A DNA stretch of 64,000 bases. Origin: Patescibacteria group bacterium UBA3531. Lineage in GTDB: Bacteria; Patescibacteriota; Minisyncoccia; Phycocordibacterales; UBA3531. Made by a program: the position numbers and the translations under genes. Under the pieces are notes generated by a model that was given only the letters and a program-made list of their open reading frames with translations, ran no database searches and had not been told where the DNA came from. Where the stretch lies: assembly GCA_002376885.1 (NCBI GenBank), contig DFOW01000004.1, positions 1,018-65,017 of the forward strand, written 5' to 3'. Of this stretch, positions 13,215 to 63,070 are shown in pieces. Position 1 is the stretch's first letter. Each line of letters opens with the position of its first letter.

Positions 13215-13242
13215 TTGAAAACTCAAATATTTTTTGTATAGT
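13215..13242 (+). promoter_or_regulatory. Sigma-70-like promoter (TTGAAA-16-TATAGT) driving a GC-rich mini-gene
   Basis: Canonical hexamers directly upstream of the GC-rich ORF at 13274. Confidence 0.4.
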
Positions 13243-13273
13243 GTAGCCAGACCTTTAACGGAAGGGGGATCCG

Positions 13274-13498
13274 TTGGATCAAATCGGCGTGGAAGATGCT
13301 GGGGCACAGGCTGCCGTTTACCACTTCAAGGACGACTCTCGCTGTGGCGAGATCGTACCGAAAGGGAACGGTACCAAACGGTGGGAGTGCAACGGCTGTG
13401 GAATCTTCATCGCGGAGGGCAGTCTTCGATTCGCCCTACCGGTTCACCCAACCCAGATGATCTCTCCTGAGATCGAAACGAGGGCTACCGCACGGTAG
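13274..13498 (+). CDS. GC-rich cassette gene: small hypothetical protein (TTG start)
   Basis: SD GGAAGGGGGA lies 4 nt upstream. The ORF is 62% GC in an AT-rich genome and ends in a perfect 11-bp hairpin terminator. The product contains C..CNGC. Confidence 0.4.
   Translation: MDQIGVEDAGAQAAVYHFKDDSRCGEIVPKGNGTKRWECNGCGIFIAEGSLRFALPVHPTQMISPEIETRATAR
13473..13497. terminator. Bidirectional hairpin terminator (gagggctaccg-cac-cggtagccctc)
   Basis: Perfect 11-bp stem flanked by T-runs on both strands, between the converging cassette gene and glyQS. Confidence 0.6.
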
Positions 13499-13511
13499 CC
13501 CTCGAACCTTT

Positions 13512-14891
13512 TTAAGAGAATTTTTCTTCTAAATATTTTTTAAGGTCAGATATAGCAACTCTATCTTGTGTCATAGTGTCGCGTTCACGCACCGTAACTG
13601 CTTTGTCTTCAAGCGAATCAAAATCGATAGTTATGCAAAACGGTGTCCCAATTTCATCTTGTCGTCTGTATCGCTTCCCTATTGATTGTGTCTCATCGTA
13701 TGCACACACAAAGCTATCTTTTAATTCATTAAAAATGGTTTTTGCTTCACTTGTGAGTTCGTCTTTTTTAGAAAGTGGAAGAATAGCAACTTTTACGGGA
13801 GCAATGTTTTTATTCAGTCGTAACACTATACGCTCTTCCCCATTCACTTCTTCTTCATCATAAGCGTCCGCCAAAAGCGCCAAAAAGAGTCTTCCAACAC
13901 CACCTGATGTCTCAACCACATGCGGAATAAACTTATCGTTTGTTTCTTGATCAAAATATTCAAGCGATACTCCTGAATGCTTTTGGTGCTGTGTTAAGTC
14001 GTAACTACCGCGCGCATGGATCCCCTCAAGCTCTCCCCACCCAAACGGGAATTTATATTCAATATCATCTGCCTTAGTAGCATAAAATACGAGGTTCTCG
14101 TGAGGAGCCCATTTTAGGTTCTTTTTATTGAGCCCAAGCTCAACGAGCGCATTAAATCGGTACTCTTTAAACTCATCGTAGTATTTCATTTCATCCTCTG
14201 GGCGTACAAAAAATTGCATTTCCATTTGCTCAAATTCTCGCGTTCTAAAAAGGTATTGCCGTGGAGAAATCTCATTCCTAAATGCCTTTCCTATTTGGGC
14301 CACTCCAAAAGGAATTTTTTGGTTAGTAGTATCAAGCACATTTTTATAGTTAATATAAATACCTTGTGCAGTCTCCCCTCGCAAGTAACTTGGACCACTA
14401 TTGCTTGTGGTTCCTAAATTTGATTCAGTAAGTAAGTTAAATTTTTTAACGGGAGTAAATTCATTGTCTGGGCACTCTGGACACTTGATATCTTTTTTAT
14501 GCTTTTCAAATAATTCATTGAGCTCATCTTCTGACATCTTCTCGTCTGCCCCTACTCCAATCTCTTCAAGCAAATGGTCTGCGCGGAATCGTTTTCCGTT
14601 TTTTTTACATTCAACAAGTGGGTCAGAGAATCCACTCGTGTGACCACTTGCTTCCCACACCTTTGGATGCATAAAAATCCCTGAATCAAGCCCAACAATG
14701 TCGGGGCGTCCTTGAACCATAATGCGCCACCATTCCCTTTTAATATTATTAGCAAGCTCTACTCCTGTTGGCCCATAATCGTACACACCCGCAAACCCTC
14801 CATAAATTTCTGACGAAGGATAGACAAACCCTCTCCGTTTTAAAAGAGAGGTTAACTTTTCCATCTTTTCGATATCTTTGTCTTTTGCCAT
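13512..14891 (-). CDS. glyQS: Glycine--tRNA ligase (dimeric GlyRS)
   Basis: Full-length class II GlyRS homology (459 aa). Confidence 0.95.
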   Translation of the reverse strand: MAKDKDIEKMEKLTSLLKRRGFVYPSSEIYGGFAGVYDYGPTGVELANNIKREWWRIMVQGRPDIVGLDSGIFMHPKVWEASGHTSGFSDPLVECKKNGKRFRADHLLEEIGVGADEKMSEDELNELFEKHKKDIKCPECPDNEFTPVKKFNLLTESNLGTTSNSGPSYLRGETAQGIYINYKNVLDTTNQKIPFGVAQIGKAFRNEISPRQYLFRTREFEQMEMQFFVRPEDEMKYYDEFKEYRFNALVELGLNKKNLKWAPHENLVFYATKADDIEYKFPFGWGELEGIHARGSYDLTQHQKHSGVSLEYFDQETNDKFIPHVVETSGGVGRLFLALLADAYDEEEVNGEERIVLRLNKNIAPVKVAILPLSKKDELTSEAKTIFNELKDSFVCAYDETQSIGKRYRRQDEIGTPFCITIDFDSLEDKAVTVRERDTMTQDRVAISDLKKYLEEKFS

Positions 14892-14932
14892 CCTAATAAA
14901 ATTCTTAATTATCTTTTTGTATGGTTTATGTT

Positions 14933-14957
14933 TGTCCCGTGGAATTTTAACAGGACA
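14933..14957 (-). promoter_or_regulatory. Conserved 25-bp palindromic motif (TGTCCCGT-N9-ACGGGACA family) about 42 nt upstream of the glyQS start
   Basis: tgtcccgtggaattttaacaggaca, followed in gene orientation by the conserved leader TTAAGAATTTTATTAGG-ATG. Confidence 0.55.
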
Positions 14958-14959
14958 GG

Positions 14960-15331
14960 TTACAATAGTTGTTTTATATTCTCGGGTGGTCTTCCAAGCA
15001 CAGCACGATCCCCTCGTTCAATAATGGGCCGTTGCATAAGGTCTGGATACTGTATCATAAGATCAATATATTCGTCATCGGTAAGCTCTTTATCTTTTAA
15101 TTTGAGCTCTTTATACTTCTCCTCGCTTGTCCGCACAAGCTCACGCGGAGTAATCCCAAGCTTTTCTATAAGCCCCGCAAGTTTTTTATGAGACAAAGGA
15201 TTGGTATGGTATTCCCACACCTCATATGCCATCATGGCTTTATCCAAAATAGCGATTGTTTCTCTGCATTTTGAGCACGTAGACTTCTCATACACCACCA
15301 AGTGCGAATCTTCGCTATTTTTTTCTGACAT
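14960..15331 (-). CDS. ArsC/Spx-family protein (arsenate reductase-like)
   Basis: CSKCR redox motif near the N-terminus and an ArsC-family fold. Confidence 0.7.
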   Translation of the reverse strand: MSEKNSEDSHLVVYEKSTCSKCRETIAILDKAMMAYEVWEYHTNPLSHKKLAGLIEKLGITPRELVRTSEEKYKELKLKDKELTDDEYIDLMIQYPDLMQRPIIERGDRAVLGRPPENIKQLL

Positions 15332-15381
15332 GGTTAAATTGTACCTATAATTTGTTATTATCGCCAGACACAAAAACAAAC

Positions 15382-16020: not shown

Positions 16021-16024
16021 AACA

Positions 16025-16067: not shown

Positions 16068-17246
16068 TTAAGACCAGAGTCTGTTTTTGAGTAAATGAAG
16101 CACACTTCCAAATGTTGCAAGGAAGAGAATAAACGATGCCAAGAACCCAATAACAGGAATAAGCATGAGTGCCAAAAGCACTACCACTCCTACAATCGCT
16201 GTTACCCAATCAAGTCTGATATCATCGCTTCGTGTTGCAAGCTTAATAGCAAGCGCTCCAATAACCACACTTGTTGCAAGTTTTGCAGCAAGTAATACGG
16301 TCATGTATCCAAGTCCAAGCAAGAAACCAAGAGGCATTCCAATAAGGGTAATGAGAAGAATGAATGCCAAAATTGGGAGAATAATGAGCGCCACAAATCC
16401 TACTCCTACACTCTTCCAAAATGATCGTGCTACATGAGACACGACACTTCGTGTTCCATCTTTTGCTGCGTAGACAAGAATAAGAGCCACCACCAAAAGC
16501 ATAAGGGCCATGGTTGTTACCCCAAATCCTAGGATTTTTTCTCCTGTTGGAGGGGCATCGCTTCTCATAACTTCTTCAAAGGTGAGTTCTCCTCGAACCG
16601 TTGCACCTTCGTCAATTTTTGCTTCTTTTGACGATTCATAGACACCACCACCAATGTTTGCGCCGTTACCAATCACAAGTCCGTCTTGAACTTTTGCATT
16701 AAGTGACCCAAGAATTGTTCCATTGATCCGGAGTTCTCCTCCTTCAACTCGAACATCTCCTGTTACCGTTCCGTCAATCGTGGTAAGTCCACCAAACACA
16801 ACCACATCTCCTGACACGGTTGCGCCCGATACCAAGTGCACTACCCCACCAGCGGCGACAACATCACCACCAACAGCATTTGCTACTTGAACGTTTCCTC
16901 CTGCTACTCGAAGATCATCTCGGACAAATCCCAAAATGTTTACGTCACCCCCTGCAACAAGAGCATCCCGGCCAACACCACCAGAGACAGTTACATTACC
17001 CCCTGCTCCAATAAGGTTCCCGGATGTTTCTCCAAGAACAGTAACTTCACCTCCTGCAATAAGAAGGTCTCCTATAACGTTGCCTGAGAGTGTTGCAACA
17101 CCCGCAGCAACGTACAAATCGTCACGAACGGTTTCTCGTTCAGGAAGAGCAAACTCCTCTCCCCCTTCAAAGGTTGCTCCATACACAGTCGCCGTTCCAA
17201 AAACTGCGACAAACAAGAGCACACCCAAGGCTATAAATTTATTCAT
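16068..17246 (-). CDS. Bactofilin-like (polymer-forming cytoskeletal, DUF583-type repeat) protein with signal peptide and C-terminal multi-TM region
   Basis: Tandem AGG(N/D)V.V.G repeats typical of bactofilin beta-helix proteins, followed by three TM helices. Confidence 0.5.
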   Translation of the reverse strand: MNKFIALGVLLFVAVFGTATVYGATFEGGEEFALPERETVRDDLYVAAGVATLSGNVIGDLLIAGGEVTVLGETSGNLIGAGGNVTVSGGVGRDALVAGGDVNILGFVRDDLRVAGGNVQVANAVGGDVVAAGGVVHLVSGATVSGDVVVFGGLTTIDGTVTGDVRVEGGELRINGTILGSLNAKVQDGLVIGNGANIGGGVYESSKEAKIDEGATVRGELTFEEVMRSDAPPTGEKILGFGVTTMALMLLVVALILVYAAKDGTRSVVSHVARSFWKSVGVGFVALIILPILAFILLITLIGMPLGFLLGLGYMTVLLAAKLATSVVIGALAIKLATRSDDIRLDWVTAIVGVVVLLALMLIPVIGFLASFILFLATFGSVLHLLKNRLWS

Positions 17247-17282
17247 TATAAAAAATGCTAGTTATTAATACCTACGTTCTAC

Positions 17283-17520
17283 CAAAAAACGGGACTCTCT
17301 ACAAGGAGGCAAGGTTAAAGGCCCGGCCGCCGAAGCGAACCGGGCCTTCTTCAACCTGAGAGTGCTCCAGCCGGAGCAGTTAGACGTGTCAGTGACATCC
17401 TTTGGCGTGAGGGTAGCCACATCGGGCCTCTCCACTTGCAGCCGGTCTCAGGCGGGGATGGTTTGAGACAACGAAGCCGGTTGAACCACCACCCTGCACG
17501 TGCTGGAAGCAGTCTAACAA
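17283..17520. other. GC-rich (~60%) ORF-poor intergenic island; candidate structured ncRNA or decayed GC-rich cassette
   Basis: Sharp GC jump between two AT-rich minus-strand genes. The minus strand has a GC hairpin (ggcccgg...ccgggcc) followed by a U-run. Internal direct repeats GGAGCAGTTAGAC and GGAAGCAGTCTAAC are present. Confidence 0.3.
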
Positions 17521-17570
17521 TTTGTATTTAAAAATCAACCCCGTCAAATAACCCCACAGGGTTAGCTTCG

Positions 17571-18344: not shown

Positions 18345-18435
18345 GAACTCGATTATACCAGACAAACTTGCAATAAAGGCCCTAGTTATATAAATTGGAT
18401 ACGGACTGGCAATCATGCCTGAAAGGAGCAGTACC

Positions 18436-18903
18436 GTGCAGGAGCACACCCATTCGTGGTCTGGCACCCAGATCGAAGGTTTCCGGCTGGTTGCCGGAGC
18501 AGAGATCCGAGGTACCGACCGCTACGATTCCTCGACGGGCAAGTGGGAGCCTCCGCCCCCTGCTGTCGGCCGCAACATGGACGACCCCTACGATCGGGGC
18601 CTCACCCTCGAGGAAGGGTGCCCGACCATGTGGATTCGTCCGGAGCTCTCCGACAACACGAAGGAGCTTCTCATGCTCCTCCGAGCGCGGCTTCTCGACA
18701 TCCATGAGAAGAGCATGACGGCTACGCGTCTCCCGATCGGGAGGTGGGAGCAGTATCCCGTCCCCAGCCGAGAGAGCGTGCAGGAGCTTCGTGACTGCGG
18801 GCTCGTCGCCCCCTACCAGGGCAAGACCTACGAGACCGAGTTCACGACGGTTCTCCGCCTGACGGAGCTCGGAAGGGAGACCGCCGAAGGACTCCTCTCC
18901 TGA
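18436..18903 (+). CDS. GC-rich cassette gene: hypothetical protein (GTG start after SD AAGGAG)
   Basis: About 62% GC. Upstream is TTGCAA...TATATA. It is followed by the hairpin terminator ggccccggccgcg...cgcgccggggcc. Confidence 0.45.
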   Translation: MQEHTHSWSGTQIEGFRLVAGAEIRGTDRYDSSTGKWEPPPPAVGRNMDDPYDRGLTLEEGCPTMWIRPELSDNTKELLMLLRARLLDIHEKSMTATRLPIGRWEQYPVPSRESVQELRDCGLVAPYQGKTYETEFTTVLRLTELGRETAEGLLS

Positions 18904-18912
18904 TCAACCAGA

Positions 18913-18953
18913 GGCCCCGGCCGCGTTCACACGCGCCGGGGCCTTTCATTTTT
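18913..18953 (+). terminator. GC-hairpin terminator (copy 1 of a duplicated terminator)
   Basis: ggccccggccgcgttcacacgcgccggggcc followed by tttcatttttg. Confidence 0.6.
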
Positions 18954-19044
18954 GTTGACAATATATTTTTTATATTGTAATTTTTTTTCAGGTGTACACG
19001 CGACGCAGTCGAGAGACACTGTCGCAAAAACACAGGAGCAAATC

Positions 19045-19698
19045 GTGTCTAGAAAAAACCTTGGACTGGACGTTGGACAAGCTCAGGAGCTCAAGCTTGC
19101 CTTCAGGCGTCATGATTGGGACAATGAGCTCATCAAGCGACTTTGCGAATCGAATATCCTGGGCGACGCCCTCGACATCCTTCGTGGAGACGCGCAAGCC
19201 GTTCCGATCGAACGTGTCGTCGACCTTGGAGCGGAGCCTGAGATCAAGGACGGTAGTGTGGTCGTCAAGCACGTGAAGCAGGGGGTGAAGCCTTGGCGCG
19301 ACATTCGTCTCGCCCTCATCGACCCCAGGGATCTGCACTACACCAGACTGGGGATCCCTTACGACCAAGAACCGCCTGATCAGAGGATCATGGAGATCAA
19401 CCCTCGAACCATGAGGCCACACTTCCTGAAGGGACAGCGCCCAGCGAACATCCTCATGAGGGATTTTCTCCTCGAGATCCCTCATCTGATCCCTCACGAC
19501 TGGGTCCCCAGGGCCCCAATCGTGTTCTGGGGGACGGTCTGCAAGAGCGATACCACCTACTGGGTTCCCGGGATCAACCAGGACTTCGGCGGGTGGTACG
19601 CTCACGATTGCCGGGTGGAGATGCCTCGCGATCGCATCATGCTCCGTAACTACGACAACCCCTGCGTCGTCCTGACGTCGGCACCGTCGATTGTCTGA
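19045..19698 (+). CDS. GC-rich cassette gene: hypothetical protein (GTG start after SD CAGGAG)
   Basis: About 60% GC ORF followed by a near-identical copy of the 18913 terminator. Confidence 0.45.
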   Translation: MSRKNLGLDVGQAQELKLAFRRHDWDNELIKRLCESNILGDALDILRGDAQAVPIERVVDLGAEPEIKDGSVVVKHVKQGVKPWRDIRLALIDPRDLHYTRLGIPYDQEPPDQRIMEINPRTMRPHFLKGQRPANILMRDFLLEIPHLIPHDWVPRAPIVFWGTVCKSDTTYWVPGINQDFGGWYAHDCRVEMPRDRIMLRNYDNPCVVLTSAPSIV

Positions 19699-19709
19699 AG
19701 TGTTCTGAT

Positions 19710-19750
19710 GGCCCCGGCCGCGTTCATGCGCGCCGGGGCCTTTCGTTTTA
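19710..19750 (+). terminator. GC-hairpin terminator (copy 2)
   Basis: ggccccggccgcgttcatgcgcgccggggcc followed by tttcgtttt. Confidence 0.6.
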
Positions 19751-19765
19751 CTATTATTCCCCTAG

Positions 19766-19891
19766 CACAACTTTCAAAAGAGCTCTCGGAGCCCGAGCGG
19801 GCCGGTGTCCCGCTTGCAGGACGAGCGAGGGTGAGAGCGAGCAAAAAATCCCCGCTGGGGGATTTTATTGCGTGTCTTTTGAAAGTTTGTG
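19766..19891 (+). repeat. MITE-like GC-rich repeat, copy A (TIRs CACAACTTTCAAAAG ... CTTTTGAAAGTTTGTG)
   Basis: Shares the core AGAGCTCTCGGAGCCCGAGCGGGC...GAGCGAGGGTGAGAGCGAG plus a 3' hairpin/T-run with copies at 34582, 45986 (inverted) and 49193. Confidence 0.65.
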
Positions 19892-19898
19892 CAAAACC

Positions 19899-21212
19899 CT
19901 AGTAACTCAAAAGCCTCTTCGCCTTCTCATGTGTCCTAATCTTCTCATGCGCCTTTGCTTCAATTTGCCTAATTCGCTCTCGGGTCACTCCAAACTCCTG
20001 CCCCACTTCTTCAAGCGTTCTCATTACCCCATCGTTTAATCCATAACGCATTTCAAGAATCTTTCTTTCTTTTGGTGAAAGGTCTCCTAAGATTTCACGA
20101 ATCTGATCTGCCAAAATTCTGCGGGCACTTTCATTATCGGGTGACAAAATTTTATCGTCTGGAATAAATTCTCCCAGTGTTGATTGTTCGTCTCCACTAT
20201 CCCCCACCGGCTTTTCGAGCGAGATGGTTGTTTGATTAATCTTTTCAATCTGATGAACCTTTTCTACTTCAATTCCCATTTCAGTTGCAACTTCCTCAGG
20301 AAGCGGTTCGCGTCCCAAGTCTTGCGACAATCGCCTTACAATTTGCTTATACTTTGCGATGGTTTCAACCATGTGCACGGGAATTCGAATGGTTCGAGAT
20401 TGATCGGCAAGTGCCCGGGTAATACTTTGCCTGATCCACCAGGTTGCATACGTTGAGAACTTAAATCCTTTGGTGTGATCAAACTTCTCTACCGCCTTAA
20501 AGAGCCCCAAATTTCCCTCTTGAATAAGGTCAAGGAGCGTAAGATCGGGACTCCTACCAATGTATTTTTTAGCGATAGAAACCACGAGTCTCAGGTTGGC
20601 TTTAGCGAGCGCTTTTCGTGCTTCATCGTCCCCTTCTAAAATTTGCTTTGCAAGATCTTTTTCATCTTTTGCACTAATCAATTTATATTGACCGATTTCT
20701 TTAAGGTACATTTGCACAGAGTCAAGAGATGGATCACCTTGTGGCAAATTCTTTAGAATATCATCTTTGTCATCGCCATCAGTATCGAGATTAATAAATC
20801 CACCCGATTCTAAAACATCAATTTGTGCTTCGCTAAATCGTTCATAAAGTTCCTCTAAAAAGAGGATATTATTCTCTACATCTGGGAATTCTTTTAAGAG
20901 CTCACTGTAAGTAACAAATCCTCTTTTTTTACCACGCCTAATAAGAGCGTCTGCTTTTGACTCAAGATCCTCCTTCTTTTTTGAAACACGTCTTGTTGCT
21001 TTTTTTGTGGTTTTTTTGGCAACCTTTTTCTTAGCTACTTTTTTGGTTTTTGTAGCTTTTTTTGTTGTTTTTTTAGCTACTTTCTTTTTTGAAACTTTTT
21101 TTAATGCCTTTTTTTTACTTGCCCGTCCGGTCGCCGGGCTTGTTTTTTTAGCCACCTTTTTTCGGGTGGTTTTTTTAGCCTTCTTTTTAGTTGTCTTCTT
21201 TTTTGCTGGCAT
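19899..21212 (-). CDS. rpoD: RNA polymerase sigma-70 factor RpoD with an N-terminal lysine/alanine-rich (histone H1-like) tail
   Basis: Regions 1.2-4 are conserved. The first ~75 aa are KKTT/AKK repeats. Confidence 0.9.
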
Positions 21213-21255
21213 CCTAATAAAAATTCTTAATTAATAACGTTTTGTGACACGTGTT

Positions 21256-21280
21256 CGTCCCGTGGAATTTTAACAGGACA
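21256..21280 (-). promoter_or_regulatory. Conserved 25-bp palindromic motif about 44 nt upstream of rpoD (between dnaG and rpoD)
   Basis: tcgtcccgtggaattttaacaggaca, plus the conserved leader ATTAAGAATTTTTATTAGG-ATG in gene orientation. Confidence 0.55.
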
Positions 21281-21285
21281 AGTTC

Positions 21286-46113: not shown

Positions 46114-46246
46114 TAGGAAATAAAAAGTTTATTAGCATCCACAGGAGATTTGCTTGGTTAAAAAATCTCCGAGGATAGAGCGAGTCTCCGCCGGAGAGAC
46201 GAGCGTCTGGTAAACTTTTTATTTACACAACACACTCTCAAAACAA

Positions 46247-52732: not shown

Positions 52733-52765
52733 ATTTACCTGAATATCTTAGCATATTTTCTAGCA

Positions 52766-52794
52766 AAAATCCACCTTATTTCAGGTGGATTTTT
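52766..52794 (-). terminator. Rho-independent terminator downstream of pheS
   Basis: aaaaatccacct-tatttc-aggtggattttt. Confidence 0.6.
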
Positions 52795-52823
52795 GGGGGT
52801 AAAATAAGGAGATTTTAGGGGAT

Positions 52824-53978: not shown

Positions 53979-54032
53979 GGTTGCATCACCAAGTATAGCT
54001 AAAAATGCCTAGGTGACAAGACTAAAAAAGAC

Positions 54033-54446: not shown

Positions 54447-54448
54447 GA

Positions 54449-54970: not shown

Positions 54971-54971
54971 G

Positions 54972-55044
54972 AGCCACCCGTCGGACTCGAACCGACGACC
55001 CACGCTTTACAAAAGCGTTGCTCTACCAACTGAGCTAGGGTGGC
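54972..55044 (-). tRNA. tRNA-Thr(UGU), no encoded CCA
   Basis: GCCACCC acceptor, D-arm GCTCAGTTGGTAGAGC, anticodon loop TTTGTAA, T-loop TTCGAGT. Confidence 0.85.
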
Positions 55045-55642
55045 ATGTTTTTTTATATTCCTCAATCCATCCGTTAATAATCGTCAACAGCTCTTTGTCG
55101 GAATATCTGAGTGAAAGAGTACCATATTGTGCAGAGGTTTTATAGGTCCCCCTTCCTCCCTTATGGACATATGGCTTACTAAATTGAGACATCGGAATCC
55201 CTGTTATTTTTGACCAAAATTTTGTTACTTTCTCTTTATTGTGTTCTGGATACAAATGGATAAGTGCTCTTAGCCGACCTTCTGAAACGCCACAGACATT
55301 CCTAAGAAACTGCAAGAAGACCTGAATCATTTGTGGATCACTATTACTAAAAACTACTCCGTTTCCCTTTTTCGTACCCTCACCCCAATAAAGCATTACA
55401 CCAGCAATCCTAATTTCTTCTAGCTTTCTTCCTCTTTTTGTTTTTATTGTAAAAGAACCTTTTTTGTGTTTTGTTGTGTTTAGATATCGTATTGCCTCAC
55501 TTCTATCTCGCCGTTTAACACCAGCGCTATCAAGTAGACTCCTTACTTTCCAAACTTTTATATTTGTAAGATCTGAAATTTGTTTAACAGAGAGTTTTTT
55601 CTGTACGTACAAAAACTCAATCTTTTTTTCTAGATGCGCCAT
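55007..55642 (-). CDS. HTH-containing protein with a degenerate LAGLIDADG-like motif (possible homing-endonuclease-like DNA-binding protein); 3' end overlaps tRNA-Thr
   Basis: N-terminal HTH (LSVKQISDLTNIKVWKVRSLL). IAGVMLYWGEGTKKGNGVVFSNSD resembles a LAGLIDADG core. The last ~12 codons run into the tRNA gene. Confidence 0.3.
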   Translation of the reverse strand: MAHLEKKIEFLYVQKKLSVKQISDLTNIKVWKVRSLLDSAGVKRRDRSEAIRYLNTTKHKKGSFTIKTKRGRKLEEIRIAGVMLYWGEGTKKGNGVVFSNSDPQMIQVFLQFLRNVCGVSEGRLRALIHLYPEHNKEKVTKFWSKITGIPMSQFSKPYVHKGGRGTYKTSAQYGTLSLRYSDKELLTIINGWIEEYKKTCHPSSVGRATLL

Positions 55643-55684
55643 GGTGAAACAATAGCACACCTATTGTTAGTAAACAATTCTACC

Positions 55685-56083
55685 CTATTCTACAATGTGC
55701 CCTGTACCATTCTTTTTTGCATCTTCCTTATGAACAGATATATTCTTCATGTAAAGAGACGCGGCTTGGCGACGTCGTGATACATCACCTTTGCCGTCAA
55801 TATAATGTACAAGTGTTGTATGGTGTTTGGCAAGAGTCCTTCGCAAGGCTCGATACCCATGCACAATATTTACCAAAAGTACCCGCAAAAAGTGGAAGAA
55901 CCCTTTTTTTGATTGATGCGCTGCATAATCACCAAGATCAAGAAGAAAGTGTTTTGTTGTCTCAACAAGTGAATGCGTTCTCTCCTCTTCTTCATGTGCG
56001 CGTCTTGCACGGGCAATAAGTACGATCGTCATACCAAGAAGAGCGCCCCATACAAGTGATCCAAAAACTATAAGAGCAGTCAT
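55685..56083 (-). CDS. Membrane-anchored hypothetical protein
   Basis: N-terminal TM helix. Basic. Confidence 0.35.
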   Translation of the reverse strand: MTALIVFGSLVWGALLGMTIVLIARARRAHEEEERTHSLVETTKHFLLDLGDYAAHQSKKGFFHFLRVLLVNIVHGYRALRRTLAKHHTTLVHYIDGKGDVSRRRQAASLYMKNISVHKEDAKKNGTGHIVE

Positions 56084-56108
56084 AAGTACCTTTTAGTATA
56101 CAGGAGTA

Positions 56109-56567
56109 TTAGCGGCCTGTGATTGAGAACCGTGTAAAGTTTCCAACTTCTGTTCGTTCACCAAACTTTTGTGTTGCAGTTTGAATAAGGTCGTCGATAG
56201 TATGAGAAGGATCTTTTACAAAATCACTTTTTACAAGCGTATCTTTATCTGCTGGATTCATGGCAGCAACATGCATTGCAATGTCGTATGCCAACTGTTT
56301 AAATTCTTCGTTTTTTGCAACAAAGTCAGTCTCACACAAAAGCTCTACAATAGCTCCAATGTCGCCATCTCCATGGATATATGCTTGAACAACACCAGAG
56401 TTTAGGTCTCTTCCTGACTTCTTTTCTTTAACGTGAGTCCCTGTTGTTTTTAGAACCTCCATGGCTTTGGCCATGTCTCCTCCCGCTTCCTCAAGAGCTT
56501 TTTTACATTGCATGACAGAAATGCCTGTCTTCTCTCGAAGCTCTTTTACTTGATCGGTTGTGATCAT
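56109..56567 (-). CDS. tsf: Elongation factor Ts (short form)
   Basis: N-terminal UBA-like LREKTGISVMQCKKALEEAGGDMAKAMEVLK. 152 aa, as in many reduced genomes. Confidence 0.9.
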   Translation of the reverse strand: MITTDQVKELREKTGISVMQCKKALEEAGGDMAKAMEVLKTTGTHVKEKKSGRDLNSGVVQAYIHGDGDIGAIVELLCETDFVAKNEEFKQLAYDIAMHVAAMNPADKDTLVKSDFVKDPSHTIDDLIQTATQKFGERTEVGNFTRFSITGR

Positions 56568-56611
56568 CCCAATAAAAATTCTTAAATGCTAATTAAATTC
56601 GACTATCTTTT

Positions 56612-56636
56612 TGTCCCGTGGAATTTTAACGGGACA
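56612..56636 (-). promoter_or_regulatory. Conserved 25-bp perfect palindrome about 45 nt upstream of tsf (between rpsB and tsf)
   Basis: tgtcccgtggaattttaacgggaca, plus the conserved leader TTTAAGAATTTTTATTGGG-ATG in gene orientation. Confidence 0.55.
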
Positions 56637-56643
56637 AGTAGTA

Positions 56644-57339
56644 CTATTCCTTTCCTTCTTTATATGCGTTTTTAATTCTCTCAACAAAAAATTCAATACT
56701 CTTTAGCGAAGCATCATTTGCAACAATTGGATACGTGATTTTTCTGATGTCGCAATCTGAACCAGAAAGCGATACCACTGGTACTCCCATTTTTACTGCT
56801 TCGGTTACCGCAATGTCTTCCTCTTTTGAATCAACAACAAAAAGTGCATCCGGGGTTTTGTCGATTCCTTCGACGCCTCCAAATTTCCGTTCAAGGTCAC
56901 CCATTTCTTTTGCAATTACTCCTTGTTCTTTTTTAGTGTATTTATCAAGTCCTCCTTCTGCCTTTTCTTTTTTGAGTTCGGTGAGACGTTCAATTCTTTT
57001 TCGTACTTCGGTGAAGTTTGTAAGGAGTCCTCCAATCCATCGTTCGGAAACATATGGGGCTTGCGCCTCCTTTGCGGCGGCTTCGATAATCCCTTTTGCT
57101 TCGGGTTTTGTTCCTACAAACAAAAGAGTCTTTCCTGATTCTGCAAGACCTTTTACAAATTTTTCTGCCTCTCCTAAAAGATCCTCAGTCTTTTTAAGGT
57201 CTAATACGTCAAGATTGTGCTTTTTTCCAAAGACAAAGTCCTTTACTGATGCGTGGCGTCTTGCACGAGTAAAAGCAAGGTGAGCCCCCGCTTCAAACAT
57301 TTCGTCTACGGTTGTGCTATCTGATAGTTTTTCTGCCAT
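56644..57339 (-). CDS. rpsB: 30S ribosomal protein S2
   Basis: Full-length S2 homology, directly upstream of tsf. Confidence 0.95.
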   Translation of the reverse strand: MAEKLSDSTTVDEMFEAGAHLAFTRARRHASVKDFVFGKKHNLDVLDLKKTEDLLGEAEKFVKGLAESGKTLLFVGTKPEAKGIIEAAAKEAQAPYVSERWIGGLLTNFTEVRKRIERLTELKKEKAEGGLDKYTKKEQGVIAKEMGDLERKFGGVEGIDKTPDALFVVDSKEEDIAVTEAVKMGVPVVSLSGSDCDIRKITYPIVANDASLKSIEFFVERIKNAYKEGKE

Positions 57340-57462
57340 ATGTCTTTATTTAAACCCGTAAGAGATCCCTACGGGTTGCAGAAAGAATGATAGCAAAAGC
57401 CCCCAAAATATGCAATATAGACTTGTTTTGGGCTATTTTTGTTAGGTTTTAAGAACCTGCCG

Positions 57463-60400
57463 TTAGATTTCTCCACCTCCTGTTACTGCACAATCTAGAG
57501 GGCACACCAATGGGTTCTCTCCAGAAAAGGCCTCACAGATGCCATTACCACAATTGTTTTCATCCCCACCCGTTGGGTCATAACATCCATTCCCCACAGG
57601 ATCAGAGAGACATGCTTCGAGTTCAGGTCCTGGCGGTTCATTATATCCATCAATCCAACATCCCGGATCATTTTCATCAATAAGGCCATCATTGTCATTA
57701 TCGCTTGTATCATCACATACATCACCAAGAGGAGGGTCAATAATCACAATGTCACAATTTGCAGTGTCAACTGAAGATGTAACGTTATCAGTAACTCGAA
57801 ATACAGAAGACCTAAGACCAGTTGTGGGGTACGTTACCCCCGCAATGTCCTCTGTCACGCCGCTCGCATCTCCTGTCCATAAATACGAGAAGTCTCCTGA
57901 TCCCCCAAAAACACTCCCATCCCATGTTACTGGTTGGTTAACTTCTTGCTCAACAAGAGGCACTGCGTTACAAGACACAACAAGTGGAGGAAAAGCAGGG
58001 GGGCCAACAGTAAAAGCTGTAGAAAGACAATTACTGAGCGGGTCTTCATTTTCTTCAACAATGTCATTCTCAGAATCTGCACATAATCGAAGACGATGAT
58101 CCCCCTCTATAGCAGTCCAACCAGAAGAAACAACACTCTCAGTATTCCCGGAAAGAAGTGATGAGATGTCGCCTCCAGAAAGGGTTACATCGTATGAACC
58201 ATTGTCATCTAGATCAATACTGAATTCGTTGGAAAAGGCACCAACATCTTCTGTACCAACATTCTCGATCACTCCTGAAAGTGTTATGACTTCACCCTCC
58301 GAGACATCAGTTGGTTCGGTAAGACTCTCCACCGAAAGATCTGTTATTGGTGCAAAAGCTACCGTTGAATCGTAATAAAATGACCGAAGCCTAAAACCAT
58401 TATCTTCATCCCCTCCTGCACCCTGAACCCGGCACTCCAATGTGTTTAAACCAGTAAATGAAATGTTTGGTGTACTCCATACGCGAGGAAGAAGAACCCC
58501 ACAGGCATTCATATTAAACTGGTCAAATTCATTGACACCATTAATAAAACACTGAACGCGCTCCCCACCTCTTACTTCAAAACCTGCTCGGAGCGTCATT
58601 TCTGGTGGAACTGCCTGGAACTGAAGATACACCTGATCTTTCCAACTGTCACCGTCGGGACAACCGCTTGTTGGTCCTGTGACACACGCAACCGTACCAG
58701 GCCCGGCATTGTCATAACACACTTCACACACTCCTCCTGCATTTATAACCTCCTCAGCGTTACTTATAGAGCATTGTGAATTGTCCCCCCCCTCTGTTGG
58801 ATCAGCTTGTGTCAAGTCAATAACAGGAAACGTTCTTTTTACCTCCCTAAAAGAAATATTATCCACATATAACTTTAATGAATGATATTCCGCAGGGCCC
58901 AAATTTGGTTCTGGCCCTGGGAATGCCGGGCTATGAGTGCTGTCCGGATAATTAAGACAGAAAAAAATACTATCACACAACCTTGTTAGAACATTTTCTG
59001 GACCACCGTGCATTCCTTCGAATTCAAAGTAGAGTCGCGCATTTTCATAGGGAGGAAGATCAGAAAATCCCGCAATCATGCCTGTTCTCGGCGTCTCAAA
59101 CCAAATACCAAACTCACCCAAAGGATTAGAACAAATGTTTGGGTCAGATGGAGTAACATCTCCATCGAGAATTGGCTTACAGTCTTCGTAGTAATCATAG
59201 GAAAGAGATTCCAAATCTATCCTATTATTTCCGTTCTCGTCTGTAATGTACCATTGCCATCCAAATGATTCGTATGAACCTAAGATGGCACGCGGAATAG
59301 AACCATCCGGTGTTAGACCTATAGCAACAGATTCATAGGCATTAAAAACATAGGACCCTGACTGAAACCCCGGAGGAGATATAGTTAAGCCAAATGACAG
59401 TAAGTCACCCGTCTCATCTTCAACAAGACGCTCAAAAACCCCTTCCTGATCTGGTGCCCTCGTTAAAGCTCCAATCCCCGAAAAAAATACGTCATCTCCT
59501 ATGCGTTCAGTAATCACAATATCTGGATCATTCTCGTCAAGGATATATTCAAGAGCATCGGCAGAAGATGGAACAAAAATGGAAATTCCTACCACCGTCA
59601 ACAAAAACATAGAAGTCATAATGCTCTTTTTGTTTTTTTTCATAAAAAAACCTATTACAATAATAACCAAAATAATGACCCCAACAATAAGTATGACAAT
59701 TTTGTTGTCCTGGCGGAAATCAATACCCGAGGAAGGTGTGTCTGCTTTAAGAATAAACACCTCCTCAAAAGAATCGAGCACTTCTCCATCACTTTTTGCC
59801 TCTACCGACAATACTAAACGCTCTACGTCTCGCAAAGAAGAAGACAACGGTATCTGTATATCATAAACAGAATTTTGACCACTAACTGTAATTGTAGATT
59901 CTCCTAAGATTTTTTCTTTATCAGCTTCTTTTACCACCACAGAAATCTCTCCGTTGAACTCACTAGAATCTATCAAAATCTTTGATTCCAAAATTCCTTC
60001 TATTTCTTCATTAAAATCAATTCCCTTTACGTTAACAAACGCACCACGAATCAAAAGAGAGGTATTTAAAACATCAGAAACTCTCTCACCTTTTTCATTT
60101 TCAAACGAAACCATTAACTTATACAATCCTGGAGTGTTGGGTGCAATAAACGATGCTTCGAGTGTTTTGTTCTCTTGTGGCTCTACTGTATTTGCATTAC
60201 TGGTTGTTTCAAGGTCAAATACCTCTCCTGTCCTTGTGTCGCGAACAGAGAAGACCGGTAGTACTGAAAATGACTGAGACGCCCCCTCAACAACAATATC
60301 AACTGAATGCTCTTCAGCCGGCTCAAAAGCATATATATCTAAAAATCTAGGTGTAACACCAACGAGAGGAAGATAAAATGGCACAGAATTCTCTTTATAT

Positions 60401-60885
60401 CGCACGTCTTGTATAGCAATAACAGGGTTTTCTTGTGCTTCTTCTGTATTTCCAAAGGTAACCCTCTCAGGAAAAGTACTAATGATGTCTAACCCATCTG
60501 AAGAAGAAAAGAAGAGCTTAACGTAATACTCTCCAGGCCCAATAGTATTTGGCATTATATGAGAGAACGTAACCAACGTCCTCTCACCAGGAAGAATGGT
60601 TTGTGAACCTTGAATCGACTCGTATGAAAGTGCTTTTCGAGGATTCTCTGAAAGAGCATCTTCTTGCGAGCCAAAGATTCCCACATCATAAAAAATTTCA
60701 ATACTTTTTTCTGCTTTTTTGTTCCCTACAACCGCTCTTCCTTCAATAGAATTTTCTGTTTGTTTTGTAATAGATACATTTTCAACTGAAAGAGAAGGGA
60801 GAAACTGAGCTAACGCTGGAGTAGCCACAAATAAAAACGGTGCCATAAAAAGGCCGCCAAAATAGAACCAATAAAAACCTTTCAT
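57463..60885 (-). CDS. Giant (1140 aa) secreted/surface protein with signal peptide, internal TM helix, and a Cys-rich, Asp-rich (calcium-binding-like DNDNDG) C-terminal region
   Basis: N-terminal signal peptide. An internal hydrophobic helix at about aa 400-420. C-terminal CDDTSDNDNDGLIDENDPGCW and multiple Cys pairs. Confidence 0.5.
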   Translation of the reverse strand: MKGFYWFYFGGLFMAPFLFVATPALAQFLPSLSVENVSITKQTENSIEGRAVVGNKKAEKSIEIFYDVGIFGSQEDALSENPRKALSYESIQGSQTILPGERTLVTFSHIMPNTIGPGEYYVKLFFSSSDGLDIISTFPERVTFGNTEEAQENPVIAIQDVRYKENSVPFYLPLVGVTPRFLDIYAFEPAEEHSVDIVVEGASQSFSVLPVFSVRDTRTGEVFDLETTSNANTVEPQENKTLEASFIAPNTPGLYKLMVSFENEKGERVSDVLNTSLLIRGAFVNVKGIDFNEEIEGILESKILIDSSEFNGEISVVVKEADKEKILGESTITVSGQNSVYDIQIPLSSSLRDVERLVLSVEAKSDGEVLDSFEEVFILKADTPSSGIDFRQDNKIVILIVGVIILVIIVIGFFMKKNKKSIMTSMFLLTVVGISIFVPSSADALEYILDENDPDIVITERIGDDVFFSGIGALTRAPDQEGVFERLVEDETGDLLSFGLTISPPGFQSGSYVFNAYESVAIGLTPDGSIPRAILGSYESFGWQWYITDENGNNRIDLESLSYDYYEDCKPILDGDVTPSDPNICSNPLGEFGIWFETPRTGMIAGFSDLPPYENARLYFEFEGMHGGPENVLTRLCDSIFFCLNYPDSTHSPAFPGPEPNLGPAEYHSLKLYVDNISFREVKRTFPVIDLTQADPTEGGDNSQCSISNAEEVINAGGVCEVCYDNAGPGTVACVTGPTSGCPDGDSWKDQVYLQFQAVPPEMTLRAGFEVRGGERVQCFINGVNEFDQFNMNACGVLLPRVWSTPNISFTGLNTLECRVQGAGGDEDNGFRLRSFYYDSTVAFAPITDLSVESLTEPTDVSEGEVITLSGVIENVGTEDVGAFSNEFSIDLDDNGSYDVTLSGGDISSLLSGNTESVVSSGWTAIEGDHRLRLCADSENDIVEENEDPLSNCLSTAFTVGPPAFPPLVVSCNAVPLVEQEVNQPVTWDGSVFGGSGDFSYLWTGDASGVTEDIAGVTYPTTGLRSSVFRVTDNVTSSVDTANCDIVIIDPPLGDVCDDTSDNDNDGLIDENDPGCWIDGYNEPPGPELEACLSDPVGNGCYDPTGGDENNCGNGICEAFSGENPLVCPLDCAVTGGGEI

Positions 60886-60947
60886 TACTTTAAGTGTATA
60901 TGTATATGGACTTTTAAAAAAGGAAGTCTATCCACACACCACAACAA

Positions 60948-61916
60948 TTAAGGTGTTTTATTTTTTTCCACTTTGTTGGCCTCTTCGTTAAGTGTATCTA
61001 CTACTTGATCAAGATCCCCTCCCAAGATTCCTTCTATGTCGTGCCAGCTTTTTTTAATTCGGTGATCGGTGATCCTATTTTGCGGATAATTGTAAGTTCT
61101 GATTTTTTCGCTTCTGTCCCCTGTTCCGATTTGTGACTTTCTGTCTCCTCCTTCTTCTTTGGAACGACGTTCATCTTCAATCTCTTGAAGTTTTGCCGTT
61201 AAAATCTCCATCGCTTTTTCTCGGTTTCGTAACTGCTTTCGTTCACTTTGGCTCCGCACCACAATCCCTGTTGGTTTGTGGGTAATACGAACCGCTGTCT
61301 CCACCTTATTAACATTTTGACCACCGGCTCCTCCACTCCTTGAAAATTCTACTTCAATATCAGACTCCTTGATCTCTACAGTCGTCTGGGGTCTGATTGG
61401 AAGTACCGCAACCGACGCTGTTGAAGTATGGATACGCCCTTGTTTTTCAGTCGCTGGAATTCGTTGTACACGGTGTACGCCTGACTCATACTGAAGGGCT
61501 TCATATACTCCACGTCCTAAAATAGAAATTGAAACTTCTTTATATCCACCAAGTTCGCTTTTTGATTCATCAGTGATAATAAAATCCCACTTTTTTCGTT
61601 CGGCATATTTTTGATACATTTCCATTAAATTGAGTGCAAAAATACTTGCCTCTTCTCCACCAGCACCTGCTCTAATTTCCATAATAATCTCCTTGGGGGA
61701 CGCGACTTCTTTTTTGTCTTTCTCGATGATAGCCTGCATTTGCCCCATAAGTTCTGACCTATTTTTTTCAATATCTTTTGCTTCTTCTTCTGCGGCTTCT
61801 TTCATTTCGGGATCACCAAAAAGCTCCTCAGCCTCTTTCAACTTGTCTGTTAGCCTTTCATACTCCTGGTAAAGATAGGTAGTTTTTGGATTGTCTTTAA
61901 AATCTTCTGGATTCAT
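60948..61916 (-). CDS. prfA: Peptide chain release factor 1
   Basis: PAT tripeptide (RF1 type) and GGQ motif ([11 protein letters not shown]). Confidence 0.9.
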
Positions 61917-62077
61917 CCCGTACGAAATTGTTACTCTTAATCTATCCCTTGCTAGAAATTATATATCCCTTCGACCTAGACATCTGTAGCTATTACGTCT
62001 CCTGCTGAATTTCTGACGGGATAAATAATCAATAAAAAAAAGCCCAGGCCTAATTCAAGGTTTGGACTCTTTCCTAG

Positions 62078-62428
62078 TTACTTCTTTTCTTTCTTGCTTG
62101 CCCCTTCGAAATCTTTTGATTTCGTGTCGGAGTTGGTTCCTCCGGCTTTTCTAACCTTTTCTTTTTTTGCCTTAGGAGTACCTGCTTTTGCCATTCGAGT
62201 CTTGAACTTCTCTACTCGCCCCGCTGTATCTACCACAGTCTCTTTCCCGGTGTAAAAGGGGTGTGATGCGCTTGAGATTTCTACTCTAAAGAGGGGGTAT
62301 TCTTTGCCGTCAGTCCATTTATCAGTTTCTTCAGTCTCTACGGTTGAGGCAATCAAAAACTTCTCGCCACTGGTATTGTCGAAAAAAATAACTGGTCGGT
62401 AGTTTTCTGGGTGAATTTCCTTTTTCAT
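62078..62428 (-). CDS. rpmE: 50S ribosomal protein L31 (type B) with a basic C-terminal extension
   Basis: [18 protein letters not shown]31 N-terminus. The start was moved to the internal Met. Confidence 0.8.
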
Positions 62429-62494
62429 TACCCAGAGACTATATACAAATACGTCCCTAAAATCAAGGTTTTTAGGCCAAAACACCCCCTATAC

Positions 62495-62523
62495 TTGACA
62501 AATATATACAAATATGCTATTAT
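62495..62523 (+). promoter_or_regulatory. Consensus sigma-70 promoter (TTGACA-17-TATTAT) driving a GC-rich two-gene cassette
   Basis: Perfect -35 and near-perfect -10 about 60 nt upstream of SD AAGGAGA and the GTG start. Confidence 0.5.
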
Positions 62524-62585
62524 AAGGGTAGAAACATAGGGAAAGGCATTGTGCCTCCCCTACTGCTCACCACAAGGAGAACATC

Positions 62586-62828
62586 GTGCACTACGAAACG
62601 TTCGTTCGCGACCTGAAGACCAACGAGCTCAACATCGCCGGGCTCATCTTCACTAGCGTGCTCTTCGTGACCTTCGGCCTGATCTACTGCTCCGGCGGCG
62701 CCGCCTTCCTGCCCATCATCATGTTCGGCGCACTGGCGGCCACGATCGCCCTCGGCGAGCTCCGCTACAACAAGAAGCTCCACGAGAAGTGGTTCAAGCA
62801 CGCCAACGAGGGCACGATCTGGACCTGA
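62586..62828 (+). CDS. GC-rich cassette gene 1: small two-TM protein (GTG start), paralogous N-terminus (M-HYETFV)
   Basis: About 60% GC. SD AAGGAGA lies 6 nt upstream of the GTG. TM helices LIFTSVLFVTFGLIY and FLPIIMFGALAATIAL. Confidence 0.45.
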   Translation: MHYETFVRDLKTNELNIAGLIFTSVLFVTFGLIYCSGGAAFLPIIMFGALAATIALGELRYNKKLHEKWFKHANEGTIWT

Positions 62829-62852
62829 TCACACCTGACAGGAGATGAGACC

Positions 62853-63014
62853 ATGGAGACGTTCGTTGACCTCTGGTCGTCCTACGCCATCTGCTACGCT
62901 ATCGGGTTCATGCTCTTGGTTCGCCCGAAGCTTCCGGCAGGTAGCGTCTGGATCAAGGTGTTCTACGGATCGCTTCTGGTCTTCTCAACCGTCGCGTTCC
63001 TACACCAGACCTAA
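62853..63014 (+). CDS. GC-rich cassette gene 2: small two-TM protein (METFVD...), paralog of gene 1
   Basis: SD AGGAGA upstream of the ATG. Shares the ETFV N-terminal motif with the upstream ORF. Followed by the terminator aaagccacttcactcgaagtggcttt plus a T-run. Confidence 0.4.
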   Translation: METFVDLWSSYAICYAIGFMLLVRPKLPAGSVWIKVFYGSLLVFSTVAFLHQT

Positions 63015-63035
63015 GCATGTCTTAAGAACTGCCCA

Positions 63036-63070
63036 AAGCCACTTCACTCGAAGTGGCTTTCTTCATTTTT
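63036..63070 (+). terminator. Rho-independent terminator
   Basis: aaagccacttcac-tcg-aagtggcttt followed by cttcattttt. Confidence 0.6.

Follow-up and report, generated by a model that had tools for sequence, protein, structure and literature searches.

The genomes of bacteria of the candidate phyla radiation (CPR) are tiny and streamlined, and little is understood of the ways in which such bacteria come by new functions. A 64-kb stretch of the genome of Patescibacteria group bacterium UBA3531 (contig DFOW01000004.1, positions 1,018 to 65,017; hereafter the window, numbered from its first letter) raises that question in concrete form, for between its housekeeping genes lie eight short islands of high GC content, most of which resemble complete small transcription units. 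What are these islands, where did they come from, and how did they enter so compact a genome? The answer that we consider likely is that they are horizontally acquired transcription units of one or two genes, lodged in the intergenic spacers of the chromosome of a marine Parcubacteria/Paceibacterota (CPR) bacterium.

The islands were called with a 150-nt sliding window at a threshold of at least 54% GC and a segment length of at least 290 nt. Eight segments were obtained (13232-13530, 17263-17562, 18370-19939, 33787-34671, 39065-39381, 39500-39925, 43726-44088, and 62526-63062), matching the eight islands that an earlier reading of the DNA, made from sequence only, had listed; in 100 first-order Markov simulations such segments averaged 0.21 and did not exceed 2. 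The fourth segment takes in two tRNA genes, and the smaller GC bumps lie inside core genes and are within chance. The segments have 53.5 to 58% GC, against 42.3% for the window. Base composition is 53 to 66% GC in the islands and 40 to 42% in the host core, a deviation of the kind by which acquired islets are recognized. The step between islands and flanking genes is 12 to 22 points, so the gap claimed in the sequence-only reading is real but is not the uniform 20 points given there.

Ten small open reading frames (ORFs) of 53 to 217 aa occupy seven of the eight islands; island 2 has none. GC content at third codon positions (GC3) is 0.54 to 0.94 in the island ORFs, highest in i8a, and 0.30 to 0.43 in all core ORFs, the ribosomal-protein and polymerase genes of the window being ordinary in this respect. 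Pooled relative synonymous codon usage (RSCU) of the islands correlates negatively with that of the core (r = -0.31), agrees between island subsets (r = 0.78), and resembles that of high-GC genomes (r = 0.77 against a Paceibacterota locus of 58% GC), in keeping with the foreign composition first proposed for these units. GC3 values of up to 0.94, a clear third-position periodicity, Shine-Dalgarno (SD) sites, starts, and stops indicate that the islands code for proteins and not RNA. Rfam searches of the window and of islands 2 and 5/6, at the gathering threshold and at E <= 5-10, matched no island; the matches in the window were a group I intron and three tRNAs, all outside the island ORFs.

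Translation signals also separate the islands from the core. A strong SD sequence lies upstream of all ten island ORFs. Their anti-SD duplex energies (the host 16S rRNA lies outside the window) have a median of -8.8 kcal/mol, with nine of ten at or below -6, against a median of -1.7 kcal/mol for 54 core ORFs, 6% of which reach -6 and none -8 (Mann-Whitney p = 5e-7; p = 1e-5 with the best alternative start taken for each core gene). In about ten core genes (dnaE, xth, and L32 among them) a -10 box ends 5 to 14 nt (mostly 6 to 9) before the ATG, and thrS has a similar TACTAT box below the scan threshold (examples of core start regions are 40550-40568, 44022-44042, and 18345-18365). A -10 box so close to the ATG points to core mRNAs that are leaderless or nearly so, and this host seems to depend on initiation that is leaderless or does without SD sites. 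An SD-less core fits the published loss of the anti-SD motif from the 16S rRNA of about half of Parcubacteria (PMC9297842). Since the host's own genes are about 40% GC, SD-less, and often leaderless, acquired genes stand out in it by three independent signals.

A related pattern was seen beyond the window. Among 95 called genes in five Paceibacterota loci, a strong SD sequence precedes 12 of 17 genes that have no Pfam match and 22 of the 78 others (p = 0.0017), the correlation of SD strength with GC3 excess is rho = -0.36 (p = 3e-4), and in one locus (L083, UBA2103) the three GC3-outlier regions contain three of the four genes with the strongest SD. We know of no earlier description of such a contrast in SD usage between acquired genes and the core of their host.

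The islands are a real part of the genome from which they were reported. At 100% identity, positions 9899-31212 (21.3 kb) recur in contigs built with SPAdes (ERZ842013) and MEGAHIT (ERZ27286447), 50948-64000 (13 kb, including island 8) in the Logan assembly of SRR5324449, 50948-62012 in an NCBI metagenome-assembled genome (MAG) contig, and 50948-61968 in the ERZ842013 contig. These assemblies come from at least two sequencing data sets, and their identity shows that the islands are not assembly chimeras, one of the outcomes that the sequence-only reading had named as refuting it.

Comparison with relatives argues that the islands compared were gained. The 80 loci gathered from GTDB with RpoD lose synteny right after rpoD and gave no island matches there; closer relatives were found by a DnaE search, and the comparison covers islands 5, 6, and 7. 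By DnaE identity these relatives are L088 (88%; 41.5% GC), L089 (81%; 39% GC), and L092 (67%; 41% GC). The first two carry L32-rnhB-dnaE-thrS with gaps of 14 to 125 nt, and L092 has the same core gene order. All three show clean absence of islands 5, 6, and 7 at the orthologous sites, so the relatives do not carry them as ordinary core genes, a possibility raised in the sequence-only reading. The alignment with L088 ends at 38948 and restarts at 39891, leaving a 942-nt insertion (38949-39890) that comprises islands 5 and 6 together with a palindromic element; the alignment ends again at 43727 and restarts at 44015, which delimits island 7 in a dnaE-thrS gap that is 14 to 33 nt in the relatives. 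A third break, from 45918 to 46240, marks a 322-nt repeat insertion (45919-46239) with no GC-rich gene. No target-site duplication was seen at the three mapped junctions.

The relatives have insertions of their own. In L092, the two spacers occupied in the window by islands 5/6 and 7 contain insertions that are not GC-rich, encoding a sigma-54 activator and a 74-aa ORF, the sole strong-SD genes of that locus; this suggests that the two spacers are permissive or hot-spot sites. L089 has an island of 57% GC and like design (1784-2544) between SMC/GIY-YIG and RNase III; the GIY-YIG ORF (1442-1708) adjoins SMC. A ninth cassette lies 2.4 kb past the right end of the window (contig L099) and encodes 88 aa with a GC3 of 0.65, an SD energy of -8.8, and the promoter TTGACT-17-TATTAT.

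The anatomy of the units is given in Table 1. Starts are TTG in one ORF (i1), GTG in three (i3a, i3b, and i8a), and ATG in the remaining six, which agrees with the non-ATG starts and strong SD sites noted from the sequence. The four promoters quoted there are likewise present, at 13215, 39013, 62495, and about 39915; in promoter scans, the first three rank top or joint top of the scanned regions, all at island starts. The strongest terminator-like hairpins of the scanned regions are the island ends at 13479, 34528, 43985, and 63035, as the proposed GC-rich hairpin terminators would have it. Most units are antisense to the flanking core genes and several stand back-to-back with a core-gene promoter, so no essential gene is interrupted. 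Island 1, for example, takes up all the space between uppP and glyS, which are convergent. The picture of autonomous units placed between core genes without disrupting them therefore stands, and most islands are mini-genes with near-consensus promoters of their own, but island 7 lacks a promoter and island 2 a credible ORF. The latter, upstream of a DUF8173 membrane-protein gene (16068-17246, minus strand), has a weak fold (z = -2.7) and could at best be an RNA of about 200 nt, a 5' leader (attenuator or riboswitch-like), or a decayed cassette.

Table 1. Islands, island ORFs, repeat elements, and comparison features. Positions are those of the window unless another locus is named.
Feature	Position	Strand	Description
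Island 1	13215-13510	+	Promoter TTGAAA-16-TATAGT (13215-13242), SD GGGGG, TTG start
ORF i1	13274-13498	+	74 aa, Cys-rich, zinc-ribbon-like, GC3 0.64; NCBI MAZ40736.1
Island 1 terminator	13479-13504	+	
Island 2	17265-17560	-	53.7% GC, no credible ORF, stops in all frames
Island 2 signals		-	Promoter-like TTGACG ~17545; terminator hairpin 17317-17350
Island 3a	18368-18948	+	TTGCAA-17-TAAATT, SD AAGGAG, GTG start, terminator 18913-18943
ORF i3a	18436-18903	+	155 aa, GC 64%, GC3 0.79
Island 3b	18955-19745	+	-35 box TTGACAATAT, 5' UTR hairpin 19000-19025, SD AGGAG, GTG start
ORF i3b	19045-19698	+	217 aa, GC3 0.72; terminator 19710-19740
Island 4	34045-34560	+	Back-to-back with tRNA-His/Gly promoter; two SD-led ORFs
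ORF i4a	34103-34306	+	67 aa, 1 transmembrane (TM) segment
ORF i4b	34318-34524	+	68 aa, 1 TM, GC3 0.81; terminator 34528-34559
Island 5	39013-39360	+	TTGACA-17-TAGTAT with extended TG; terminator ~39316-39356
ORF i5	39115-39282	+	55 aa, 1 TM, GC3 0.84
Island 6	39600-39925	-	TTGCAG-17-TTTAAT (~39915, read by eye), SD GGAGG; terminator ~39614-39647
ORF i6	39659-39850	-	63 aa, Pro/Gly/Arg-rich, GC 66%
Island 7	43755-44016	+	No promoter of its own; SD GAGGAGGG, 24 nt past dnaE stop
ORF i7	43779-44009	+	76 aa, basic, Cys/His-containing, GC3 0.71
Island 7 terminator	43985-44016	+	13-bp; thrS -10 box next
Island 8	62495-63060	+	TTGACA-17-TATTAT, 11/12 matches, with TG; terminator 63035-63060
ORF i8a	62586-62828	+	80 aa, 2 TM, GTG start, GC3 0.94
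ORF i8b	62853-63014	+	53 aa, 2 TM, GC3 0.80
Repeat copy 1	19750-19891	+	Immediately 3' of island 3; internal hairpin terminates rpoD
Repeat copy 2	34561-34683	+	Immediately 3' of island 4; hairpin terminates SMC
Repeat copy 3	45986-46128	-	Insertion relative to L088; no cassette
Repeat copy 4	L099 1-103	-	Just 3' of ninth cassette
Y-shaped element 1	39468-39597		17-bp closing stem and two GC hairpins; z -7.9/-8.0 on two strands
Y-shaped element 2	46117-46230	-	Fold z -6.9; beside repeat copy 3 in 322-nt insertion
L092 insertions	L092 4528-5499 and 10039-10263		Sigma-54 activator and 74-aa ORF
L076 DGR module	L076 19211-20730		210-aa target; VR 19657-19813, TR 20161-20317, bAvd 20320-20730

Half of the ten products are peptides with one or two TM segments, i6 is rich in Pro, Gly, and Arg, and i1 and i7 are small Cys/His-containing proteins. 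The expectation of short membrane or disordered products is thus borne out for six of the ten and fails for i3a and i3b, which are globular. Searches of all island proteins against Pfam, PHROGs, PADLOC, and NCBIfam returned nothing significant; i8a has a match to KwaA at E = 0.008, well below significance. No homologues were found for the small peptides, and the 90%-identity clusters of the island proteins hold this organism alone.

The two proteins of island 3 also belong to conserved families, a point against the sequence-only reading, which saw no recognisable domains in most products. The i3a family comprises 38 distant homologues of 145 to 165 aa, one of them in a contig of 50% GC, and their alignment from residue 9 of the long ORF onward fixed the GTG start. 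The i3b family has 77 homologues, and the informative taxon names are all Paceibacterota/Parcubacteria except one, labelled Bacillota. The named homologues are hypothetical proteins of 173 to 225 aa that stand alone, with a different neighbourhood in each genome examined, and i3a and i3b are not linked in other genomes. The closest homologues of i3b (50 to 52% identity) lie in loci of 51 to 58% GC, where the gene (GC 0.56, GC3 0.66 to 0.70) matches its surroundings. A hairpin within the 5' untranslated region (UTR), CGCGACGCAGTCGArAGACACTGTCGCA, is conserved in the window and three loci (L096, L084, and L083), and the -35 box is common to the window and L096, so the whole i3b transcription unit, not just the ORF, appears to have moved. 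In a published survey, the transfers detected into Patescibacteria were mostly from other members of the group (PMC12455944), and for i3b the best reading of the sequences is a donor pool of higher-GC Patescibacteria/Paceibacterota. The family was not found in 2.9 million viral contigs, and tblastn found neither i3b in plasmid records nor i3a in phage records.

The stem-loop of the i3b 5' UTR, which has a GAAA loop, is found at 19000-19025 in the window, at about 7945-7975 in L096, and upstream of the gene in L084 and L083, in genomes of 42 to 53% GC. It is a candidate family-specific cis-regulatory RNA motif.

The i3b protein has a weak, putative C-type-lectin-like fold, and targets of diversity-generating retroelements (DGRs) with this fold are common in CPR bacteria. 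For i3b, neither a DGR template repeat (TR), sought as an imperfect copy of its 3' end, nor Avd or a reverse transcriptase was found in the window or, for five homologues, within 10 kb; the repeat-finding method did recover a variable repeat (VR) and TR pair in L076, a genome of 39% GC. There, 25 of 34 VR/TR mismatches fall at TR adenines, and the target is a 43% identical homologue of the protein encoded by the L089 island, whose gene seems to be frameshifted at a run of G within the variable region. In L076, a Paceibacterota genome, the target and TR region are GC-rich relative to the rest.

A structured repeat of about 140 nt is present in four copies, with 12-nt terminal inverted repeats (ACTTTCAAAAGA/TCTTTTGAAAGT) and three compensatory base-pair changes. 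Three of the four copies lie just 3' of a cassette terminator, each time in the same orientation. Every copy sits at convergent gene ends, and cassettes make up about half of those junctions; given this preference for convergent ends, the association of repeats with cassettes is not significant (p of about 0.3, by our own estimate). The repeat is absent from the loci of the relatives and could be MITE-like (a miniature inverted-repeat transposable element) or a small RNA. A metagenome scan with the repeat core gave one 25-nt match, at the 3' end of proA (motif GPLGLREL) in a contig of 73% GC (L095, 384-408); it corresponds to the invariant repeat core at 19779-19803, 34589-34612, and 46075-46099. 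As the similarity extends no further, this match is probably due to chance, helped by palindromy.

Two Y-shaped elements, each with a long AT-rich closing stem and two GC hairpins, both lie in insertions absent from L088, the first between islands 5 and 6 within the 942-nt insertion. Neither has an Rfam match. The Y-element arm AAGAAACCACATTTGGG recurs at 39378, 63082, and 63107; a 17-nt arm is the only sequence common to the flanks of islands 5 and 8. The other case of sharing between island sequences is the terminator of the unrelated i3a and i3b (18913-18952 and 19710-19749), 93% identical over 40 nt and found nowhere else in the window.

One rival explanation is that a dedicated, so far unrecognised cassette-mobilisation system, integron-like or other, captures promoter-to-terminator units at the 140-nt repeat and the Y-shaped palindromes, the units being GC-rich through a separate vector. 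The placement of three of four repeat copies 3' of cassette terminators (islands 3 and 4 and the ninth cassette) in one orientation, a fold conserved by three compensatory pairs, the fact that repeat and Y elements are themselves insertions relative to L088, the terminator sequence common to unrelated i3a and i3b, and the GC-rich cassettes at differing sites in related low-GC genomes would all follow from such a system. No integrase, transposase, recombinase, or phage protein was found, however, among the scanned window ORFs (practically every real ORF of 100 aa or more and several shorter ones), nor was an att-like site or a target-site duplication. Islands 1, 2, 5, 6, 7, and 8 lack the 140-nt repeat, the copy at 45986-46128 lacks a cassette, the relatives' loci lack the repeat, and the null expectation for convergent ends makes three of four unremarkable; the units, moreover, have promoters and are dispersed, unlike integron arrays. 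We therefore regard this explanation, which the sequence-only reading had put forward as a dedicated mechanism of insertion or maintenance, as unlikely. Only island 4 is adjacent to tRNA genes; hallmarks of mobility such as an integrase or transposase, flanking direct repeats, and a tRNA neighbour are common but not obligatory in small islets. Since mobile-element genes are lacking and the repeat association is not significant, we prefer non-specific acquisition.

The remaining alternatives concern what the units are. That their products are small membrane peptides acting as toxins or in immunity, akin to type I toxin-antitoxin systems or tied to defence, is suggested by the five products of 53 to 80 aa with one or two TM segments, by their standalone, strongly terminated loci, and by the weak KwaA match of i8a. 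There is no significant PADLOC, Pfam, or NCBIfam match, though, sequence scans show no convincing antisense promoter or overlapping small RNA, strong unsequestered SD sites are atypical of type I toxins, and half of the products (i1, i3a, i3b, i6, and i7) are not membrane peptides, so the idea is quite unlikely. Very unlikely is the origin as phage morons, or as remnants of a decayed prophage or plasmid. Own promoters and terminators, deviant GC, and placement between unrelated genes are moron-like, and the closest i3b homologue (L096) sits in a co-directional block with a type I restriction-modification system, ParB, an HNH-repeat protein, and many strong-SD small ORFs that has the look of a mobile element. 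Yet the neighbours here are housekeeping genes (rpoD, dnaE, thrS, SMC, L31, L32, glyS, xth, and rnhB), a single prophage cannot account for eight separate sites in 50 kb, and no viral, plasmid, or defence homologues were found in searches of all island proteins against PHROGs and PADLOC, of i3b against viral contigs and plasmid records, and of i3a against phage records. It is highly improbable that the islands are native ancestral genes lost in relatives and GC-rich for function (expression level or mRNA stability), or GC-rich structured noncoding RNAs. Island 2, which might be an RNA or leader, and GC-rich small secreted ORFs downstream of rpoD in other low-GC Paceibacterota speak for such origins; against them, one gain each of islands 5 to 7 is more parsimonious than losses in three relatives at graded distances, the coding signals and the lack of Rfam matches disfavor RNA, and genes for ribosomal proteins and polymerase are ordinary in GC3. 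Chimeric assembly with a co-assembled high-GC organism, for which the composition contrast alone speaks, is effectively refuted: the sequence over islands 1-3 and 8 is the same across assemblers and runs, each island fits its intergenic spacer exactly with host-compatible AT-rich promoters at its edge, and i3b has homologues in other Paceibacterota.

Horizontal acquisition of small transcription units, which we favor, would work as follows. Donor organisms or elements of about 55 to 65% GC with SD-led initiation would supply units that each bring a sigma-70-type promoter, a leader of 25 to 70 nt with a strong SD sequence, one or two small ORFs, and a strong intrinsic terminator; for i3b, the promoter, 5' UTR hairpin, SD sequence, ORF, and terminator appear to have been transferred together, and island 7 would ride on dnaE transcription in place of a promoter of its own. 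Entry may have begun with DNA uptake, the DNA then being integrated through illegitimate or one-sided homologous recombination. The intrinsic terminators would insulate neighbouring genes, and selection in a compact genome would keep only units that landed in spacers and were so insulated. The five TM peptides among the ten products and the weak, putative lectin-like fold of i3b suggest accessory roles at the envelope or surface.

Several observations weigh against this account. There is no recombination signature, so the mechanism of insertion is pure inference. Every insertion in this stretch is GC-rich, a uniformity that random horizontal transfer does not require and that may reflect a single vector or donor pool; i3b is the one unit for which a donor lineage has support. 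The support from presence and absence is limited to islands 5, 6, and 7, as GTDB synteny is lost beyond rpoD, and with the nearest relative only about 76% identical in coding DNA, "recent" is a relative term. Should the anti-SD be missing from the host 16S rRNA, translation of the island genes may be poor and some of them may not function; island 2 is without an ORF, and the gene of the L089 island is apparently frameshifted. A broader proposal is that low-GC Paceibacterota draw on a circulating pool of mini-cassettes that are portable, SD-led, complete from promoter to terminator, and distinct in composition, some DGR targets and some small membrane proteins, inserted by an unrecognised site-preferring mechanism into the same few spacers, possibly via the 140-nt and Y repeats, with acquired genes forming a separately initiated and separately controllable class. 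We think this rather unlikely.

The host was placed by its genes. The window encodes rpoB, rpoC, dnaG, rpoD, dnaE, gyrB, SMC, RNase R, RNase III, RNase HII, GlyRS, ThrS, PheS, RF-1, EF-Ts, and ribosomal proteins S2, S16, L31, and L32, as well as three tRNAs and one group I intron. All relatives of its RpoD in GTDB are MAGs of Parcubacteria/Paceibacterota type, many of the records being labelled Saccharibacteria, at 59 to 73% best-segment identity. Its proteins are the MAZ407xx series in NCBI (locus tag CL654_) and are present in Tara Oceans catalogues too. Together, the gene content, the RpoD relatives, and these protein matches identify a chromosomal stretch of a marine CPR bacterium.

Other features of the window were noted in passing. 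The group I intron (Rfam, 89 bits, 629-863) splits the anticodon loop of a tRNA at 575-905 on the minus strand (exons about 864-905 and 575-628), which ARAGORN did not call. The N-terminus of RpoD is extended by a repetitive, Lys/Ala-rich stretch (KKxAKK repeats), which appears in the DNA as AT-rich direct repeats (20974-21200). Directly after thrS is a 41-aa zinc-ribbon ORF (CxxC...CxxC; 45790-45915, plus strand) that is kept in L088 and L092. Upstream of glyS, rpoD, and tsf, a hairpin, GTCCCGTGGAATTTTAACGGGAC, is followed by a common leader, TTAAGAATTTTTATTAGG-ATG, with copies at 14929-14983, 21252-21306, and 56608-56662 and diverged copies at 49347 and, upstream of prfA, 62005; it may be a common regulatory leader of translation and transcription genes.

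What the window adds is a view of fresh acquisitions in a CPR genome, as complete single-gene expression units set in spacers of tens of bases. In kind, this is the horizontal acquisition of small accessory genes that is already known for Patescibacteria, and we found no evidence for a new class of mobile element. Its added value lies in the clean anatomy of the units and in how SD-led acquired genes differ from a core that lacks SD sites and is often leaderless. That contrast touches the open question of 16S anti-SD loss in about half of Parcubacteria (PMC9297842). If the host lacks the anti-SD, the SD sites of the islands would be fossils of the donor that date the transfers; if it keeps the anti-SD, SD-led initiation would be reserved for accessory genes. 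Taken together, GC3, SD strength, and leadered versus leaderless architecture could also serve as a simple means of detecting acquired genes in Patescibacteria.

Among known systems, the 140-nt repeat and Y elements are most like MITE and repetitive extragenic palindromic (REP) sequences: they are short, structured, noncoding, and multicopy, have terminal inverted repeats, lie at convergent gene ends, and differ in presence between close relatives. Unlike those families, the 140-nt repeat has four known copies, with no cognate transposase or target-site duplication seen. Integron cassettes are likewise small ORF units, and three of the nine units here have a structured imperfect palindrome of about 110 to 140 nt at the 3' side; but integron cassettes are promoterless, arrayed by intI and attI, and carry an attC each, whereas the present units have promoters and are dispersed over 50 kb, with no intI in the window and no repeat at most units. 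Type I toxin-antitoxin loci share the product size (53 to 80 aa), the one or two TM segments, and the standalone arrangement, yet here there is no sign of an antisense RNA, the strong SD sites are accessible, and half of the products are soluble or larger. From the lectin-fold targets of DGRs the units differ in that no template repeat, Avd, or reverse transcriptase was found near i3b or five of its homologues, and the other islands lack DGR features. With phage morons the units share an autonomous promoter-ORF-terminator design (island 7, without a promoter, excepted) and deviant GC; the defining phage or prophage context is replaced by chromosomal housekeeping neighbours. There is a likeness, too, to the individually transferred genes and islets described in Patescibacteria (PMC12455944), which are also compositionally deviant, lineage-specific accessory genes, with donors inferred to be mostly Patescibacteria, as for i3b. 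The units described here differ from these in being much smaller (0.25 to 1.4 kb, one or two genes), very dense (nine in about 66 kb), and uniformly GC-rich, and in that each is a complete unit from promoter to terminator.

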